The notes under the pieces were generated by a model. It had not been told where the DNA came from and searched no databases. It saw only the letters and a list, made by a program, of their open reading frames with translations. A stretch of 64,000 bases of DNA, from positions 864,001 to 928,000 of the forward strand of contig CP084166.1 of assembly GCA_021513695.1 (NCBI GenBank), in the 5' to 3' direction. This DNA comes from Candidatus Heimdallarchaeum aukensis. Lineage in GTDB: Archaea; Asgardarchaeota; Heimdallarchaeia; Heimdallarchaeales; Heimdallarchaeaceae. Every line of letters starts with the position of its first letter. Position 1 is the stretch's first letter. The position numbers and the translations under genes were made by a program. Positions 24,005-44,437 of this stretch are shown here, piece by piece.

Positions 24005-24327
24005 TAAATAATTGAATTAAATTAAATTATAATAATATTTTAACTTTGAATTTATTAAAACTAAAGCCTATTACTCTTTATAATATCAAGGTTTGGTATA
24101 AAAAACTGAACTTAGTACATTAATATTCTTTTCTTACAGTATTTCAAGAATCAAAAATAATTATTATCACTTTAAAAGAAGTGATATTCAAGTAAGTATA
24201 ATTACCAATAAATATTTCCTAAAAATAAATAAAGAAAAAAAGTAAGAGGAGAAAGTGAAGAAAGTGTTTAAGAACAAAGTCTAGAACTAAATAAGCATGA
24301 ATAGTAAAAAATGATTAAAAGTTAACA

Positions 24328-25395
24328 TTATATTTTTTCGTTGCTAAAATCTTTATTTTTTTTCAAGTATTCTTTAGTTTCGATATTCTTTAACCACCAC
24401 TCATTTTCTAAATACCACTCTATTGTTAGTTGAATACCTTCTTCAAAATCGATTGTTGGAAACCAGTTCAGTTCATTTTTTATCTTTGAAATATCGATCG
24501 CATATCTTCTATCATGCCCTAATCTGTCTTTAACGTGTTTAATTAAAGTTTCATTAATTTTAGTGTCTTTTGTTTTCTCATATAAATAAGAAATTATTTT
24601 TTTTACAACATATATATTCTTTCTCTCATTTTGAGCTCCAATATTATATATCTCACCTATCCTTCCTTTTTCAAAAACCAAGTCGATTGCTCTACAATGA
24701 TCAGTGACAAATATCCAATCTCTTACTTGATTTCCATCTCCATATATAGGTAGATTCTTATGGTTCAATGCATTTTGTATCATTAATGGAATTAATTTTT
24801 CGGGGAATTGGAAGGGTCCGTAGTTATTAGAACATCTAGTAATATTTACTGGCATCCTATATGTATCAAAGTACGCTTTTACTATCAAATCTGCAGATGC
24901 CTTACTTGCAGAATAAGGACTATGCGGATCAAGAGGAGTTTTTTCTGTAAAAGCACCTGTAGGACCTAGAGAACCATATACTTCATCTGTTGATATTTGC
25001 AAGAATTTCTTATTTGCAATCCATTCTTCATTGTGATACCAATTTTTTTTACATATTTCAAGAAGTGAATATGTGCCTAAAATATTTGTTTGAAGAAATA
25101 TTTGTGGATTAGCAATAGATCTATCAACATGGGATTCTGCAGCGAAATTAATAACTCCATCTATATCTTTATAGGTTTCAAATATTTTCCTTAATAACTC
25201 AAAATTATTAATATCTCCTTTAATAAAAATAAACCTTGACTTTTGATCTTCAGTTAAATTTTTCCAATTTTCAACGTTACCAGCATAAGTAAGTTTGTCG
25301 ATACCAATTATTTCTCTATCAGGATATCTATCAAGATAATAATAAAGAAAATTACTTCCAATAAATCCTGCAACGCCAGTTACTAATATTTTCAT
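24328..25395 (-). CDS. rfbB: dTDP-glucose 4,6-dehydratase
   Basis: MKILVTGVAGFIGSNF Rossmann start and YSASKASADLIVKAY (YxxxK) block. The length fits RmlB, and it is the last gene of the rfbA-C-D-B run. Confidence 0.9.
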   Translation of the reverse strand: MKILVTGVAGFIGSNFLYYYLDRYPDREIIGIDKLTYAGNVENWKNLTEDQKSRFIFIKGDINNFELLRKIFETYKDIDGVINFAAESHVDRSIANPQIFLQTNILGTYSLLEICKKNWYHNEEWIANKKFLQISTDEVYGSLGPTGAFTEKTPLDPHSPYSASKASADLIVKAYFDTYRMPVNITRCSNNYGPFQFPEKLIPLMIQNALNHKNLPIYGDGNQVRDWIFVTDHCRAIDLVFEKGRIGEIYNIGAQNERKNIYVVKKIISYLYEKTKDTKINETLIKHVKDRLGHDRRYAIDISKIKNELNWFPTIDFEEGIQLTIEWYLENEWWLKNIETKEYLKKNKDFSNEKI

Positions 25396-25418
25396 TCCTA
25401 ATACTTCCTCTATGTTTT

Positions 25419-26267
25419 TTATTTGATCAATTCAATTTCCTCTAAAAATTTGATAGTAGCATCTTGCCAAGAAGGTAGTTTGTATCCAATTACTTCTTCT
25501 AAACCAAATGGGTCTAAAACTGATAAGAAAGGTCTTTTAGCAGGTGTATTAAACTCATGAGAGAGAGCAGGAAGAAGCTCTCCTTCCCACTCTATTTTAT
25601 TTAATATATATTCAGCCCATTGATATCGTGAACAATATCCAGAATTTGTCATATGATACAACCCATAATTTTCTGTTTTTATCAAGTTGTAAGTTGCATC
25701 TACAATATCGTTTGTATAACTTGGTGATGATATCTGATCAATAACGATTCTTATTTTTTTTCTATTTCTACTCCATTTTATAGTTTTAGTTATAAAGTTT
25801 TCATTACCTTTCCCAAAGACCCAGCTTAACCTTACTAAAAAAAACCTATTAGCGATATTTTGTACATTCTTTTCACCCAGCACTTTACTTTCTCCGTATT
25901 TTGAAATGGGAGATGGTTTATCATAAATTGTATAGGGATAACCTTTACATCCATCAAAAACATAGTCAGTAGAGTAATGGACAAGTATAGCATCTAATTC
26001 ATTCGCAAGTAAAGCTAAGTTTTTTGGACCAAGCCCATTGATTCGATAAGCAGATTGCCAGTCATTTTCAGCATTGTCTACTGCATTATAGGCAGCACAA
26101 TTAATAATTATATCAATATCTTTATTTGAAACATATTCCCGTAATTTTTTAAAATTTGTAATATCTAATTCGACATCAGTAGCAAAAAAACTAATTCCCT
26201 TTTTTAAAAAAAAGGTTTGGAATGATTGACCTAATTGTCCTTTTGATCCTGTAATTAATATTCCCAT
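25419..26267 (-). CDS. rfbD: dTDP-4-dehydrorhamnose reductase
   Basis: MGILITGSKGQLGQSF N-terminus, about 280 aa, sits between rfbC and rfbB. Confidence 0.85.
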   Translation of the reverse strand: MGILITGSKGQLGQSFQTFFLKKGISFFATDVELDITNFKKLREYVSNKDIDIIINCAAYNAVDNAENDWQSAYRINGLGPKNLALLANELDAILVHYSTDYVFDGCKGYPYTIYDKPSPISKYGESKVLGEKNVQNIANRFFLVRLSWVFGKGNENFITKTIKWSRNRKKIRIVIDQISSPSYTNDIVDATYNLIKTENYGLYHMTNSGYCSRYQWAEYILNKIEWEGELLPALSHEFNTPAKRPFLSVLDPFGLEEVIGYKLPSWQDATIKFLEEIELIK

Positions 26268-26414
26268 ATAATCACCATTAAATTTTCATAAATATATCTT
26301 TTATGTGATTCAAATTTGAAATACTATAAAGCAACTCCTACGAACTAATTTCTTAATTAATGCATATATTATTCTCTTTCTTACATACCTTTTTAGCTTA
26401 ACTTCTTAATTAAA

Positions 26415-26996
26415 TCACTTTTCGTATTTAAAAGGTAATTCAATATCTTTCAAAAATGGTAATTTAGAATCTTTCTCTGAAATAATTAATCTTGAATCTT
26501 CAATCTTGTCTAAAGGCCATTTAATGTTTATATCTGGATCATTCCACCTGATTCCTCTATCATATGCTGAATAATAATAATCAGTTGTTTTGTAAACAAA
26601 TTCAGTCTCTTCAAGGGCAAGAAATCCATGAGCAAAACCTTTAGGAATATAAAACATGCGTTTGTTTTTTTCAGAAAGTTCTACACCATAATACTGACCA
26701 AAACTGGGAGAACCTACTCTTATATCAACAGCAACATCAAACACTCTTCCTTTGATTACACGTACTAATTTTCCTTGAGAGTGCTTAGATTGAAAATGTA
26801 ATCCTCGTAGAACTCCTTTTGAAGATTTAGAGTGGTTATCTTGTACAAAATCCACGTTTAATCCAATTTTGTTAAATTCCTTTTTATTATAAGTTTCCAT
26901 AAAAAATCCTCTTTCATCGTAAAAAATTACTGGTTCAATAATAAATGCCCCTTCCAATATTGTTTCAATTTTATTAAATTTTAACATATAAATCAC
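26415..26996 (-). CDS. rfbC: dTDP-4-dehydrorhamnose 3,5-epimerase
   Basis: Cupin with the RGLHFQ block and KLVRVIKGRVFDVAVDIR. 193 aa. Confidence 0.9.
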   Translation of the reverse strand: MIYMLKFNKIETILEGAFIIEPVIFYDERGFFMETYNKKEFNKIGLNVDFVQDNHSKSSKGVLRGLHFQSKHSQGKLVRVIKGRVFDVAVDIRVGSPSFGQYYGVELSEKNKRMFYIPKGFAHGFLALEETEFVYKTTDYYYSAYDRGIRWNDPDINIKWPLDKIEDSRLIISEKDSKLPFLKDIELPFKYEK

Positions 26997-27143
26997 CGTA
27001 AATCTTTACTATAATTTTTGGATTAGTTTATCTCATAATCATGTTTATTTTTTGTCACTGTTGTACTATTGAAATGAAATTAATTTTATTCTATTAAATC
27101 TATTGAATTACATTATACTTTGTAATATGTAGATGAAAAATTT

Positions 27144-28007
27144 TTAAATAAGACTTAATAAATACCTTCCATAATCAGAATTTGAGTGCTCTTTTGCTAA
27201 ATTTTTAAGTTGATCGGTGTCAATATATCCAAGTCTGAATGCAATTTCTTCTAAACAAGCAATATAATATCCTTGCCTTTTTTGAATAGCTGCAACAAAA
27301 TTACTAGCTTCTATTAAACCATCAAATGTTCCAGTATCAAACCAAGCTAATCCACGTCCTAATAATTTGACTTTCAACTTTCCTCTTTTTAAATATTCAA
27401 TATTAAGATCAGTAATTTCTAGCTCTCCTCTTGGAGATGGTTTAAGATTTTCTGCATATTTAATTACATTATTATCGTAGAAATATAAACCAGGTATAGC
27501 ATAATTTGATTTTGGAAAAGCTGGTTTCTCTTCTATGGAGATAACATCCATAGTTTCTTCATTGAATTCTACAACTCCAAAAGCGGTGGGATTATTTACA
27601 TAGTAACCAAAGATTAAGGCTCCTTCCTTTAAAGTAGTTGCTTTTCTTAAAATTGAAGAAAAACCTTGACCATAAAAGATATTATCACCTAAAATTAGTG
27701 CAACATTATCAGAACCAATAAATTCTTTACCAACAATGAAAGCATCAGCTAACCCTCTTGGTTTTTCTTGAATTTTATATGAAAACTGAACACCAAGTTG
27801 AGAACCATCTTTTAATAAATTCTTGTAGTCTATAATATCTCTTGCTGTTGAGATAATTAAAATATCTTTTATCCCAGCAAGAAGAAGTGAAGAAAGTGAG
27901 TAATAAATCATAGGTTTATCATAAACTGGTAGAATTTGTTTTGAAATTGCTTTTGTTATGGGATATAATCTTGTTCCTGTTCCTCCAGCCAATACAATTC
28001 CTTTCAT
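27144..28007 (-). CDS. rfbA: Glucose-1-phosphate thymidylyltransferase
   Basis: [36 protein letters not shown] is the canonical RmlA N-terminus. Confidence 0.9.
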
Positions 28008-28340
28008 TTTCTATTATAAGAAGAAAAACTCTATTCTATAAAATTTTCGTAATCATAAATCATTGTGAAATCATGAATTAATATTCTAAGGAAATACACT
28101 TCACATTTTTTTATTTTGTATTTATAAACCTAGTAAACATATTATCTATTAAGAGAAAAAAATGGAATACTAAAACATTATTAGAAACTATAATCTATTA
28201 ATGTTAGATTTGCTCGCTAACTAAAAAAATCATTGCTTATTCCTAAACAATAAAAAGAACAACTAGAAAAATAAGTATCAAAGCATTATGTTTTAAAATT
28301 TTATGTATAATACTATTTCACGTATCATGATAAGCATAAA

Positions 28341-28500
28341 CTTGGTCTAACCTACTGTAACTCCGATCTTTTTTCAACCTCTCTTACTACAATTTTAGCC
28401 TTGCTCACCAGTCTATTAACTTCCTAACTTTGGAAAATAATTTATGAACCAACCCTAAGTTTTTGACATTCAAAAGTGTAACCCCCTATAGAGAGTGAAT
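28341..28500. repeat. Intergenic repeated element, copy A (intact); a homologous copy at 43246-43317 plus 44081-44200 is split by the IS6-like insertion
   Basis: Shared core cttggtctaacctactgtaactc[c/a]gatct...tttt...cctctcttactacaatttt. The downstream cttcctaac...aataatttat...caaaagt[gt]taaccc blocks align by eye between the two loci. Confidence 0.5.
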
Positions 28501-28773
28501 ATAAGAAATAAAAGCAAAAATCAATAAAAATTTTCTTATAGGTATTGTTTCTTTTTCTAAATTACACTTCTGAATCAGAAGCTGAAGTTGTATCAGAATA
28601 ACTGTTTAAATACAAATATGATGTTACAGACTTCATAAATTGTATTTCTTGGAGTTACATCAACTTATATAATAAAATCATAATACATAGTTTAACAAAG
28701 CTGGTGACTGATAACTTATTTTAGTAAAATGTATTCTTATTTTTCATATCAATTGTTGAAAATTTTATTATTT

Positions 28774-29658
28774 TTATTCATCAAATGAATACCAATTATG
28801 TAAATCAATCTCAAATAATTTTTCGAATTTAATAATATCATCTAAAAAGTATTCATTAATTAGTTTTTCTTTTAATTCAACATTTATTTTTTTCTTGTCA
28901 AGTGGTTTTTTATTAAAGTTCATCAGTAATTTAGATAGTTTGTATCTAAAAGTTTCATCCGGAATAATACATCTGATTATTTTTTTAGCAAAATTATCTT
29001 TGTATATAAAATCTCGTATAAATTTGTTCTTTGATTCATAAGCTTCATTCTTTAAAATGTTTAAATTAAGGTCGTATTTTGGAATATCAAGAAAAGAAAA
29101 TAATTTATCGATCATCTTTTTAATGTTTAAACATAAATCGTATTCAAAATTAAAAATTATAAAATTCTTCTTATGGAAAAAATCTAGATATTTTTGAATG
29201 TTTAGATAATACATTCCTTTTTCAAGATAATTATATCTTTGATAATAGGGATGATTTGCATTTAATTCTTTTATCTCCCTTTGGATAGCTTCTTCAAAAG
29301 TTAATTTTTCATAACCTCGTCGAACATTCATTAAATAGTGAGAATATGCTCGTTCCACAGGATCTCTTACAATTAAGATAAATTTTACACCATTTCCAAA
29401 AGCATTATAGATTCTTTTTGGTACTTGCTTATAGTACAAATATTCAGGTGCTACTTCACCTAAATAGGAACTTTCATCACATTTAAAGAACGTTGAGAAA
29501 TACCAATCTAAACCTTTCTTGAACTTTCTGTCTAAATCAAAGAATCTAGTTTCTTTGATATCAGGAAGACATAACTTTGGATGCTGTTTTAGAATAGAAT
29601 GAATTGTTGTTGTTCCTGCTTTTTGAGCACCTATACAGAAGAAAGATACCTTTGGCAT
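28774..29658 (-). CDS. PAPS-dependent sulfotransferase
   Basis: FFCIGAQKAGTTTIHSIL (5-prime PSB) and ILIVRDPVERAYSHY (3-prime PB). Confidence 0.7.
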   Translation of the reverse strand: MPKVSFFCIGAQKAGTTTIHSILKQHPKLCLPDIKETRFFDLDRKFKKGLDWYFSTFFKCDESSYLGEVAPEYLYYKQVPKRIYNAFGNGVKFILIVRDPVERAYSHYLMNVRRGYEKLTFEEAIQREIKELNANHPYYQRYNYLEKGMYYLNIQKYLDFFHKKNFIIFNFEYDLCLNIKKMIDKLFSFLDIPKYDLNLNILKNEAYESKNKFIRDFIYKDNFAKKIIRCIIPDETFRYKLSKLLMNFNKKPLDKKKINVELKEKLINEYFLDDIIKFEKLFEIDLHNWYSFDE

Positions 29659-34687: not shown

Positions 34688-35740
34688 AAGTATTTAGCAA
34701 AAAAGTTTTTTTATATATTTATTGATATTGTTAACTCAACAGATACAAGTTACACTCACGGAGAGATAAAGAGTCAAGAAGACATTCATAAATCTTTTAT
34801 TTTACCAAGGGTAAAGAGACTATGCCTTTAAGGGGACAGGATGTTGTAATAATCACAAAAACGTTGAAGGACAGTGTTACTTACACTAAGTGAGATCTAT
34901 ACGGTTCATCTCTTGGACAATAACTCCAAGGAGATGTTCAACTCTTCAATAAGTTTCAAGGTGATGGATCTGTGAGCTGATGCAGCCGATAACATGGGTT
35001 TGACACCGTTTATCACCATTAGAAGAAGGTACTCGTTTCTCTTTGTATTGTGTGAAAGAGTACTCCATCGTTGGTTAGAATCTGTTGAGGAAGAGCATAG
35101 TTTTGCATAGCTTGATCTAAAAATTGGGACATATCTAAAGTTTTAACTGTGTGAGAATAGAATTTTGTTGCTACATATATCGAACCGTAGGTGATTACTA
35201 ATTACACTCACGAAGTAGAGGTGTTGGCCTTATTCTTCTACCCGAAGGGCGCTCTAATAGATATTCGTCAAAAGTCGTTAGGTTTAGTTTTCTCGAATCT
35301 TTTTGTTCTCTTGTAAAATTAGCTGTTTTTCTCTATTTCTTTTCACTCTTTTTTTATAGTACTTTATTTATTATAAATGCCCCTCCTGTCTTAAGAATAA
35401 GCAATCTTGACTATATTAACTTTATATTTGCTCCTACCTATGATTGTATGTCTTCTTTCTATAACTTTCTTCTTTATTCACTTATTGATGATTTTTCTAC
35501 TTACTATATATTCTCTTGCTATTTAAGCTACTCTCACCCTTACAAAACTTCTTTAACTACTCTTTTCTAAGTTTTCTAGTTTACGTTTAGGTTTCATGTT
35601 TAATTAGTCACTTGCTCTTTGTAACCCTTTCTTTTACACCATTATCAAGGCTGGTTTAGTAAACAAGGGGTTTCAATTTAAAACATACTATTTAAAAATC
35701 AAATCTAAATTATTTTAAATGCTTTACAATAGTTGTATTT

Positions 35741-38688: not shown

Positions 38689-39387
38689 ATGACAGAAGGA
38701 AAATACAATAATCTAGTTATATTAATTCCAACGCTAAATGAGGAAGATTCTATTGGTTATTTAGTGAACTCATGTAAAAAATTGACAGATAATGTAATTG
38801 TTGTTGATGGGTTATCAATTGATGATACAGTGGTAATCTCTAAGAAAGAAGGGGCAGAAGTGATTTATTGCAAGAAAAAGGGAAAAGGTAATGCTATTAT
38901 AGACGGTTTAAAATACGTATTGAAGAAACCAAATATTGAATATATCGCATATTTGGATGGAGATAGTACATATGACCCTTATGACATAAAAATTCTGTTA
39001 GACAAGATGTTAAATGAAAAAAAACTTGATGTAATAATTGGTAACAGATTACCAAAAAGAGAAAAAGGTTCTATAAAATTTATAAATATAATTGGCAATT
39101 ATTTATTTTCTTTTTTAATTAGTCTAATAAGTAGGGTAAAAATAAGTGATTCACAATCAGGTCTTCGTTTATTATCTAAAAAAGCAACTATGATATATTC
39201 AGATTGTCTAGAGTCTTCTGGTTTTGATATTGAAACTGAAATGATCATTAAAGGGTCGAGAAAAGGTATTAAATTTGGTGAAGTTCCTGTTAGCTATAGG
39301 TGTCGTGAAGGAAATTCTAAACTTAATCCTTTTAGAGATGGATTTAAGATTTTAAAAACGATTATAAAATATAGTTTTAAAAGATAG
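38689..39387 (+). CDS. GT2 dolichyl-phosphate sugar synthase-like glycosyltransferase (Dpm1/AglD/AglJ-type)
   Basis: LVILIPTLNEEDSIGYLVNSCKKL...VVDGLSIDDT...YLDGDSTYDP matches the GT-A architecture of polyprenyl-phosphate glycosyltransferases. 232 aa. Confidence 0.75.
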   Translation: MTEGKYNNLVILIPTLNEEDSIGYLVNSCKKLTDNVIVVDGLSIDDTVVISKKEGAEVIYCKKKGKGNAIIDGLKYVLKKPNIEYIAYLDGDSTYDPYDIKILLDKMLNEKKLDVIIGNRLPKREKGSIKFINIIGNYLFSFLISLISRVKISDSQSGLRLLSKKATMIYSDCLESSGFDIETEMIIKGSRKGIKFGEVPVSYRCREGNSKLNPFRDGFKILKTIIKYSFKR

Positions 39388-42585: not shown

Positions 42586-43030
42586 ATGGATATAAAAATG
42601 GACATTAATAAATTCAAAAATCAAAACATCTTGATAATTAGTGAAAATGGTTTTATTGGTTCTCACCTTTTTCTAAAGCTTAGACATTTATCTAAAAATA
42701 TTATTAGAACAGTTTATTCACATAATTCAGAGAAAAATCAATTGTACAAATTTTACTATATCCATGTATTATTTGTTCAGCTGATGATTTAGAAGATGAA
42801 TATGCAATTGATGGGATTTAATAGATGTGTTTCATCTATAGGTAAATATTTAGTTTTTCCATAAACCAGACCAGATGATGAAAATACAAATTTTGAATCC
42901 TCTTGATATTTTCTAATGTTTTCCATTATATTTAAAGTTCCAAAAGTATTGACTTGATAACAAAGCTCTGGCTTTTTTATTGATTCATAAACATCAATTA
43001 AACTTGCTAGGTAATATATGATATTGAAAT
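42586..43030. pseudogene. Disrupted NAD-dependent sugar epimerase/dehydratase: N-terminal fragment on + strand (42586-42792) and the following mid-gene segment inverted on - strand (~43030 to 42790)
   Basis: The + strand encodes NILIISENGFIGSHLFLKL (Rossmann GxxGxxG start). The - strand encodes YLASLIDVYESIKKPELCYQVNTFGTLNIMENIRKYQEDSKFVFSSSGLVYGKTKYLPIDETH, which is the segment that normally follows in the same orientation. The C-terminal part is absent. Confidence 0.55.
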
Positions 43031-43245
43031 TTTAAAATTATTACAATAATATCCTACAAACGATTTGGTTATACTATTAAGATATATAAGTGAAGTAGAT
43101 AAAATAAATAAAAACTACCTCACTTTTAAATCTTTATAAGTTTAGTTCTTTATAAATTTTGGTTAATCTTACTACATTTTTCTCATTATAATACTTTTTT
43201 TTATTATTTTTTTATTTATCATGAGACATTCATGAAATGTAGAGA

Positions 43246-43317
43246 CTAGGTCTAACCTACTGTAACTCAGATCTCTTTTTTTCTTCCTCTCTTATTACAA
43301 TTTTCCCCCTTCACTAG
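43246..43317. repeat. Left half of repeated intergenic element copy B; the right half resumes at 44081
   Basis: ctaggtctaacctactgtaactcagatctc...cctctcttattacaatttt matches 28341-28395. Confidence 0.45.
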
Positions 43318-44080
43318 GGTAGTGTCTAGTTTTTATACCACCTCCTAGGTAAAAAGGAACTAAGGGGAGGATGTCCCAAGCTCTGATGAGGACGAACGAA
43401 ATTATAATGGAGCATAAAGAGAGTAAGAAAACCAGAAAGATGAGTAGAGCCATAGACGGCACGGATAGGACAAGTGCAGTGGAGAATAGAATGAAACCAA
43501 CGATAACTCTTAAGAGTAGCATTAAAACGTTCAATATAGGAGCGTAAACCACCTTTGATAACGGAGATTTTGATACCTAGACGAAGTAAGACAGGATACC
43601 ATACCCCTGCATCTGTAACGACAATACGGGGCTTAAAACCCCAACATTTGAGCCAATAACGGAAAGTTAGTAAACATTCAAGATTACTCCGTCCTTTAGT
43701 AATACTAAAACCCAGTAAAGTCTTGTTGTAAGGATCTAACGCGAACCACAGATATATTGAGCCTTGAGAGGTCCTAATCTCTGTTTCATCTACTACTATA
43801 ATCTCTGGTATTCCCCCTCTCTCTGCTACAACTCTATGTAAACTTTCCCTAAAGAGCCTGAACTTCTTTACCCAATACCATAATGTTTGATGCGTTAAAC
43901 CATTCTTCCATGCTACTGTCCTCAACCCATTCTTTGAACCAATATATTCATAAATCGCTTTTATTATTATTTTTTTGGGGACTCTGCATCTCTTAAAAAG
44001 AGCAGATAGTTTTTGTGTTTTCATATCTTACTATTAGAGTCCCCACAAATATTTTTGTCGGAAGAAAACTAGACACTACC
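43318..44080 (-). mobile_element. IS6-family-like insertion sequence (about 763 bp, 16-bp perfect terminal inverted repeats GGTAGTGTCTAGTTTT, 9-bp direct target duplication CTTCACTAG)
   Basis: The inverted repeats start with GG as in the IS6 family. The CTTCACTAG duplication sits at 43309-43317 and 44081-44089. The single ORF spans almost the whole element. Confidence 0.75.
43326..44024 (-). CDS. DDE transposase, IS6-family-like
   Basis: 232 aa. VVDETEI, VVTDAGVWY and IERFNATLKSYRW blocks resemble the D, D and E/K regions of IS6/IS26-type transposases. There is an N-terminal HTH-like region. Confidence 0.7.
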   Translation of the reverse strand: MKTQKLSALFKRCRVPKKIIIKAIYEYIGSKNGLRTVAWKNGLTHQTLWYWVKKFRLFRESLHRVVAERGGIPEIIVVDETEIRTSQGSIYLWFALDPYNKTLLGFSITKGRSNLECLLTFRYWLKCWGFKPRIVVTDAGVWYPVLLRLGIKISVIKGGLRSYIERFNATLKSYRWFHSILHCTCPIRAVYGSTHLSGFLTLFMLHYNFVRPHQSLGHPPLSSFLPRRWYKN

Positions 44081-44437
44081 CTTCACTAGCCTCCTAACCT
44101 TCTTATATTAGAGAAATAATTTATTAAAAGAAACATTTTTCTAGTACCCAAAAGTATAACCCATGTCTATCGAGTGAACAACTAGGGAAATAGTAATCAA
44201 AAATTCTTCATATATTGAATAATCTGATATTGGATATTTGAAATTAAGTCCAATTTCCGCTTACAAATTCCTCTTTTGAAGTTTTGTATATACTTCTTTA
44301 TACATGCATATTATAAAATGAAAACATAAGCTTAATTTATATTCTTCTTTTTGACATATTATTTTAATCATTATAGAGAAAAATAGAGTTTCAATTAGAA
44401 AAAATAAATTTTTATTATAGAAAAAAAATATTAACTT

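Follow-up and report, generated by a model that had tools for sequence, protein, structure and literature searches.

A 64,000-nt stretch of the genome of Candidatus Heimdallarchaeum aukensis (the window) carries an insertion sequence (IS) that interrupts an intergenic sequence, and an uninterrupted twin of that sequence lies near 28.3 kb. What is the repeated sequence, and why should an IS be found within it? The initial annotation described an IS6-like element inserted into a repeat of about 150 bp, and suggested that the repeat could be a MITE, a small RNA gene or a preferred IS target. The best explanation, to which a probability of about 90% is assigned, is that two unrelated ISs are nested, with an IS6-like element (IS-A) lying inside the decayed tail of an IS481-family element (IS-B). 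The features of the IS-A insertion and the rfbA gene near the twin are as follows.

27144–28007, minus strand: rfbA
43309–43317, no strand: target-site duplication CTTCACTAG, left copy, belonging to the IS-B remnant sequence
43318–44080, minus strand: IS-A, an intact archaeal IS6-like insertion sequence of 763 bp
43318–43333, plus strand: IS-A terminal inverted repeat GGTAGTGTCTAGTTTT at the transposase-start-distal end (IRR by convention)
43326–44024, minus strand: IS-A DDE transposase, 232 aa, intact, with predicted catalytic residues D79, D138 and E165 and conserved K172
44065–44080, minus strand: IS-A terminal inverted repeat, the perfect complement of 43318–43333, at the transposase-start-proximal end (IRL by convention)
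44081–44089, no strand: target-site duplication CTTCACTAG, right copy

The element is a genuine IS, with the perfect 16-bp inverted repeats beginning with GG and the 9-bp duplication that had first been recorded, and its G+C content is 38.5% compared with 28.4% for the whole window. Since the duplicated target itself has the form CT...AG, repeat-finding software reported longer units, of 18 nt for the inverted repeat and 11 nt for the direct one. Taken alone, the window copy could be read as a 16-bp inverted repeat with a 9-bp duplication, or as 17 with 7 bp, or 18 with 5 bp. A scan of genome contigs with the end of IS-A gave nine sites in the closely related Ca. H. endolithica, and the boundaries were compared across 10 further H. 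endolithica loci, which correspond to these nine sites because L001 and L008 coincide. The sequence common to the copies runs from GG to CC only; one copy (L001/L008) begins with TG, and the GG tip is present in nine of the 11 loci recovered (10 distinct copies). As the copies are alike only between these tips, IS-A corresponds to nt 43318–44080 (763 bp), flanked by a duplication of 9 bp. These limits were confirmed independently by nt 28054–28062 of the window, which is the orthologous empty site of an H. endolithica IS-A copy located upstream of rfbA.

A duplication of 9 bp had been regarded as slightly unusual. That holds against the canonical 8 bp of IS6 but not against other copies of IS-A, nor against the archaeal elements ISH15 and ISPfu5, for which ISfinder gives 9 bp (PMC6807381, Table 5). 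At the nine other H. endolithica sites the duplication measures 9 bp at three, 10 bp at three and 11–12 bp at one, and is absent from two. Because most of these copies carry 9–10 bp, the 9-bp duplication is a property of IS-A itself and no oddity of the window copy. The two sites lacking a duplication are compatible with, but do not prove, intramolecular replicative events or recombination.

When IS-A and one copy of the duplication are removed, the reconstructed empty site over nt 43309–44089 reads …CCCCCTTCACTAGCCTCC…, and the joined flanks match nt 28325–28448 by BLASTn (76.6% over 128 nt, E = 7e-20), with the alignment running across the junction. The proposal that the flanks are homologous to one contiguous stretch near 28.3 kb is thereby borne out. 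A local alignment of the two repeat bodies scores 101 (shuffles, 17.9 +/- 2.5), and the 20-mer GGTCTAACCTACTGTAACTC is found at exactly two positions of the window, against an expectation of none. The two copies are 77% identical and in direct orientation. The homologous body of the twin (nt 28326–28501) is slightly longer than the 28341–28500 given earlier. The twin lies between rfbA and a sulfotransferase gene (nt 28774–29658); with rfbA encoded on the minus strand, this places it upstream of that gene and not downstream as first described. The two copies differ in their orientation relative to neighbouring genes. A segmental duplication was considered and rejected, as the flanks outside the repeat bodies are no more alike than shuffles. 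No uninterrupted allele of the second copy was found in other assemblies, the Logan contigs ending at the IS. Several proteins of the window are present exactly in the Logan assemblies of SRR15988954/58/59.

The identity of the repeat became apparent from copies outside the window. A metagenome scan with an 18-mer core of the repeat returned five loci, two of which (L018 and L019, overlapping contigs carrying one element) hold the whole element. The other three (L015–L017) are chance matches of 18–23 nt, with L016 and L017 falling in the region of a eukaryote-like kinase gene. The core gave no match in the collection of genome contigs, among which the window's own genome is not included, and viral contigs scanned with the core and with the IS-B tail gave no match in either case. 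In L019 the element comes immediately after ...ILTDNGALF...HPETCGKVERLHGS and reads in frame as ...RLGLTYCNSGLSFYRSYYNFSRPHQSLNLLTPGERFMNHPYISLVPKSVTQVY*, the C-terminus of an rve-type transposase. In L019 and in the H. endolithica loci L004 and L007, the sequence of the window repeat forms the 3' end both of a transposase gene and of an IS. The copies in L004 and L007 are complete, with a length of 1010–1019 bp, TGT-tipped ends (TGTATACTCAAC / TGTTTACTCAAT) and target duplications of 14 and 16 bp. The L007 transposase (312 aa) is intact and scores 232.3 bits against the NCBIfam IS481 model (cut-off 224), aligning to model positions 5–284 of 284; the Pfam domains rve, HTH_32 and rve_3 are also above threshold. 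A DNA profile of IS-B was built from the L019, L004 and L007 copies, and its matches in the window are listed below.

28326–28501, plus strand: twin, uninterrupted IS-B tail remnant (profile 839 to ~1019; nhmmer, tBLASTn)
34729–35665, minus strand: third IS481-like copy, nearly full length (profile 2–1019), heavily decayed (nhmmer, tBLASTn, sequence)
43226–43317, plus strand: IS-B tail remnant copy 2, left part, decayed (profile 834–924; nhmmer, tBLASTn, translation)
44090–44180, plus strand: IS-B tail remnant copy 2, right part, to the right tip of IS-B (nhmmer, profile end 1019)

In the nhmmer search the twin is matched over nt 28326–28493 (profile 839–1013, E = 1.1e-24), and copy 2 on both sides of IS-A, over nt 43226–43316 (profile 834–924, E = 7.5e-12) and nt 44081–44180 (to profile position 1019, E = 1e-9). 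The third copy gives E = 5.4e-38 (nt 35664–34729 on the minus strand, profile 2–1019). It has TGT...ACA ends and a matching catalytic fragment (tBLASTn, E = 3e-8), and no target duplication was seen at nt 34729–35665. With the IS and one copy of the duplication deleted, the remainder of copy 2 aligns continuously across the junction to the IS-B tail, up to and including the last base of the L019 IS-B. Its right tip reads ...GTCTATCGAGTGAACA (reverse complement TGTTCACTCGATAGAC), and the same tip is mutated to TAT... in the twin. Translation of the twin gives ...LGLTYCNSDLF / SYYNFSLAHQSINFLTLENNL* / FKSVTP, with frameshifts and stop codons, and copy 2 gives LGLTYCNSDLF / SYYNFPPSLAS* / LVPKSITHVY, its left part reading ...RLGLTYCNSDLF... 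and then ...SYYNFPPSLAS*. The YYNF(S)RPHQSL motif is disrupted in the window remnants by frameshifts and stop codons. Neither tail is a complete element, since each covers only profile ~834–1019 and carries stops and frameshifts. The remnants are assigned to the IS481 family because the parent transposase (L007) passes the family model and the DNA profile matches them. The 'repeated 150-bp intergenic element' can accordingly be recognised from its sequence as the truncated 3' end (~176 bp) of an IS481-family IS.

The same alignments bear on the suggestion that the repeat encodes a small structured RNA, or acts as a cis-regulatory RNA within the glycan locus. Its attraction lies in the presence of conserved blocks, the perfect 20-mer included, amid AT-rich intergenic DNA, but these blocks prove to be codons of the transposase C-terminus (GLTYCNS, YYNF..., PKSVT) together with the IS terminal repeat. 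A search of the whole window gave no match to Rfam families, the minimum free energy is worse than that of shuffled sequences on both strands (z = +1.54, +0.98), and the orientation relative to the neighbouring genes is not the same for the two copies. An RNA gene at this position is scarcely credible.

The 5' limits of the two remnants are less easily accounted for. Both start within ~5 nt of one position in IS-B (profile 834 and 839) in spite of unrelated flanks, which would not be expected if each had been truncated independently and at random, and which hints at a breakage hot spot or at the copying of one truncated remnant. Within ~10 nt of this boundary, the IS-B copies of L004 and L019 contain 5 inserted nt that the intact L007 copy lacks. 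The shared limit could be coincidence, a hot spot for breakage, or a single truncated remnant that was copied. It also recalls a MITE-like or one-ended non-autonomous IS481-like derivative, mobilised in trans and repeated as a unit: the copies begin at nearly the same coordinate, end at the IS tip and have unrelated surroundings, and TGTATA, the first six bases of the left repeat of IS-B, is found at nt 28304–28309, ~20 nt upstream of the twin. Beyond these six bases, however, the match is at chance level and nothing comparable is seen at copy 2, so that a left terminal repeat is absent, and neither copy is flanked by a duplication of 14–16 bp. Only two copies occur in the 64 kb of the window and none in ~90 kb of sampled H. 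endolithica loci, while all full-element matches in the metagenomes are the end of an IS-B that keeps its left end and upstream coding sequence and is internally deleted. A mobile unit of this kind, and with it the original MITE proposal, is very unlikely.

If the repeat were instead a preferred or sequence-specific target of IS-A, the position of IS-A within an IS-B remnant would be explained directly, and the two elements are in fact nested a second time, in L019. There the nesting is of the opposite sense, with IS-B sitting inside a copy of IS-A, as expected for ISs that accumulate in neutral DNA. None of the nine other H. endolithica IS-A sites lies in IS-B sequence, the two elements being more than 2.5 kb apart in L004 and L007, and the eight duplicated targets that were compared are AT-rich and otherwise show no consensus. 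Target preference, the third of the suggestions made for the repeat, is therefore highly improbable.

The directly oriented tails also bracket a block of glycan genes, and could in principle be the ends of a composite structure, or portable homology through which the ~14.7-kb glycosyltransferase segment (28.5–43.2 kb) was exchanged. Comparison with H. endolithica gives this some colour: the rfbBDCA block (nt 24040–28061) is 89% identical in DNA between the two species, upstream of rfbA synteny fades within some tens of bases, still ~200 nt short of the twin, and from there on H. endolithica has another gene set. Against it, the tails preserve only the same (right) ends and are not a pair of complete ISs, their 77% identity would make a poor substrate for homologous recombination, and no duplication brackets the 15-kb block. 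Such a role for the tails is distinctly doubtful. The broader proposition that the 176-bp tail is either a copied unit (a one-ended non-autonomous derivative, or a recurrent breakpoint produced by the chemistry of the parent IS) or portable homology through which Heimdallarchaeum swaps glycan-gene cassettes is unlikely.

Under the nested-IS reading, from the sequence anatomy, homology, family assignments and duplication lengths we infer an order of events, a transposition chemistry, and a remnant that was hit through neutrality and not through target specificity. IS-B (~1010–1019 bp, encoding a 312-aa transposase) would once have been present at two places in the cell-surface glycan locus, and at both it would have lost its left ~830 bp and decayed, leaving the last ~176 bp with the C-terminal coding region and the right terminal repeat. 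Later, the 763-bp IS-A would have transposed into one of these remnants, its DDE transposase cutting CTTCACTAG with a 9-bp stagger, and the 9 bp would have been duplicated on repair. Landing in a remnant would be an insertion into dead DNA and presumably neutral. Between IS-A and its copies in Ca. H. endolithica (CP084167.1) the identity is 99%, compared with 89% for the syntenic genes; this difference, together with the perfect repeats, perfect duplication and intact ORF, indicates that the insertion was probably recent and that the element is likely to be still active. IS-A has possibly been exchanged recently between the species.

The ~176-bp element is thus ordinary transposon debris, neither a new RNA gene nor a new mobile element, and a false lead is removed, in that a conserved 'intergenic repeat' which might have entered an annotation as an sRNA or a MITE is a piece of a dead transposase. 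In these Asgard archaea, IS debris accumulates in the variable cell-surface glycan locus. For two IS types of Heimdallarchaeum, one archaeal IS6-like and the other of the IS481 family, the exact ends, the inverted repeats and the lengths of the duplications are now given; the genome paper had tallied them by transposase family only (PMC8813620).

The family position of IS-A required more than a single model score. An exact look-up of its transposase returned no record, and the protein is 99% identical to a protein (P0001) of Candidatus Heimdallarchaeum endolithica PR6 (CP084167.1). The NCBIfam IS6 model (NF033587) gives 49 bits, far under its cut-off of 125, which counts against the nested-IS reading as far as the IS6-like label is concerned. 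Other NCBIfam scores are also weak (IS3, 40.5 bits; ISC774, 32 bits; IS1, 27.5 bits), and Pfam rve_3, rve and DDE_Tnp_IS240 are all sub-threshold (14.7 against 27 for DDE_Tnp_IS240). Relatives are more informative. A tBLASTn search of 72,556 plasmids returned annotated IS6 transposases of clostridia and haloarchaea, including ISHbo1, as the best matches, with 25–29% identity over 75–89% of the protein. With phmmer, run exhaustively against 1.84 billion representatives, no more than 179 relatives were found. Among 41 full-length homologues of intermediate distance, in which D79, D138, E165 and K172 are invariant or nearly so, IS6 is the best NCBIfam model for all 41, and IS1 is matched by 21. 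The closest full-length outsiders, P0027 and P0028, are each 34% identical to the IS-A transposase (phmmer E = 2.6e-22 and 2.1e-20) and pass the IS6 cut-off with 128.4 and 137.3 bits, respectively, so that IS-A is connected to bona fide IS6 transposases by transitive homology through these proteins, the other homologues and the plasmid matches. Because these three lines point to IS6, the IS6-like label of the initial annotation is upheld as the best available, and IS-A is a divergent outlier within the archaeal IS6-like group. Another 232-aa ORF (nt 38689–39387) was considered as a second copy of the IS and dismissed, as it is unrelated and resembles a glycosyltransferase.

Compared with known systems, IS-B agrees with the IS481 family in its TGT-tipped repeats, its length of ~1 kb and its long, variable duplications (14–16 bp). 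The 176-bp remnants of the window lack the left end and any catalytic residue and are non-functional, and the third copy (34.7–35.7 kb) is full length but dead.

For IS-A, the IS1 family deserves mention. IS1 measures ~768 bp, and its transposase has 232 aa and a D and an E that are closely spaced. IS-A likewise has a GGnnnTG tip, a 9-bp duplication, a transposase of 232 aa and only 27 residues between the second D and the E. Membership was rejected, as the IS1 score of IS-A (27.5 bits, cut-off 100) is below its IS6 score and the IS6 model scores better for all 41 homologues as well.

IS26 and the bacterial IS6 elements share with IS-A the size class, the single ORF and the GG tips. The terminal repeat of IS26 is GGCACTGTTGCAAA, and the pattern GGnAnTGT is common to it and IS-A. 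The IS6 family in general has ~14–20 bp repeats with GG tips, in keeping with the perfect 16-bp repeat of IS-A. Elements of the IS6/IS26 family range from 700 to 890 bp, with one transposase ORF of ~210–255 aa (PMC7986276), and IS-A falls within both limits with 763 bp and a single ORF of 232 aa. The canonical IS6 duplication is 8 bp, which is also the length for IS26, an element that forms cointegrates (PMC7986276), whereas the duplication in the window is 9 bp. The bacterial IS6 signature is E-DH---K (PMC6807381); IS-A has ERFNATLK instead.

The archaeal 'IS6' elements (e.g., ISPfu1/2/5, ISH14/15, ISC774 and ISHbo1) are 671–853 bp long, with a single DDE transposase of 206–237 aa and repeats of 12–22 bp that are often GG-tipped (PMC6807381, Table 5). 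IS-A fits this description with its 763 bp, its 232-aa transposase and its 16-bp repeat (GGTAGTG...). The signature of the archaeal transposases is E--F---K-R (PMC6807381). IS-A has K at E+7, and in the consensus of its homologues this K is joined by R at E+9, although IS-A itself deviates, with F at E+2 and R at E+10. It differs further in being only 25–29% identical to any annotated IS6 transposase, in duplications of 9–10 bp instead of the usual 8, in the YNxxRPHxxL (rve_3-like) motif at its C-terminus (HYNFVRPHQSLG), and in belonging to a tiny lineage (179 matches among 1.84 billion representatives). Whether the archaeal group should be counted in the IS6/IS26 family proper has been disputed by Harmer and Hall (2019; PMC6807381). 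IS-A is a newly described member of the archaeal IS6-like group. Its 9–10 bp duplications, its sub-cut-off family score and its rve_3-like C-terminus make it a further case in the debate on how archaeal 'IS6' elements relate to IS6/IS26.

Among the IS-B copies (IS481 family) outside the window, the nesting is reversed in the overlapping metagenome contigs L019 (Ga0180301_10090958, nt 110–1241) and L018, where a copy of the IS6-like element IS-A contains a copy of IS-B. The nested copy carries an internal deletion of profile positions 486–625 and a frameshift. A 5-nt insertion relative to the intact Heimdallarchaeum endolithica copy (L007), CCCAA, is present in the IS-B copies of L019 (~1058–1063) and of the H. 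endolithica locus L004 (~1012–1016). It lies immediately 3′ of the catalytic E codon and shifts the transposase frame, and both decayed IS-B tails in the window are truncated no more than about 10 nt from this site. The core of the uninterrupted tail, ACTTGGTCTAACCTACTGTAACT, also gave a 23-nt exact match in two metagenome contigs of 40–42% G+C (L016, nt 1159–1182; L017, nt 1751–1774), adjoining a coding sequence with likeness to protein kinases of the eukaryotic type. This match is probably due to chance, as the flanking sequences are unrelated.

The window, in which glycan-biosynthesis genes are the dominant content, also carries the following:

34729–35665, minus strand: a heavily decayed third IS481-like element of almost full length
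42586–42926, opposite strands: two short ORFs resembling parts of an SDR epimerase/dehydratase

The ends of the third IS481-like copy are TGTTTACTAAAC... and ...GTTGAGTTAACA, and no target duplication was seen around it. One of the two ORFs resembles an SDR N-terminus (GxxGxxG) and the other the middle part of such a protein, the latter with a below-threshold Pfam match to GDP_Man_Dehyd; the pair look like scrambled pseudogene fragments. They lie directly upstream of the interrupted IS-B remnant. Across the whole 64 kb (nt 1–64000), no Rfam family, tRNA included, attained its gathering score.

An empty site at nt 28054–28062 is orthologous to the IS-A insertion of H. endolithica at L001 9945–10706, which lies 60 bp upstream of rfbA; past this site, synteny between the two genomes persists for no more than some tens of bases before fading. 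The H. endolithica IS-A copies (L001, L006 and L007) share 99% identity with the window copy (nt 43318–44080), whereas the syntenic rfbBDCA genes (nt 24040–28061 versus L001 10708–14723) share only 89%. This difference suggests that IS-A has been active recently, or that the two Heimdallarchaeum lineages have exchanged it recently.
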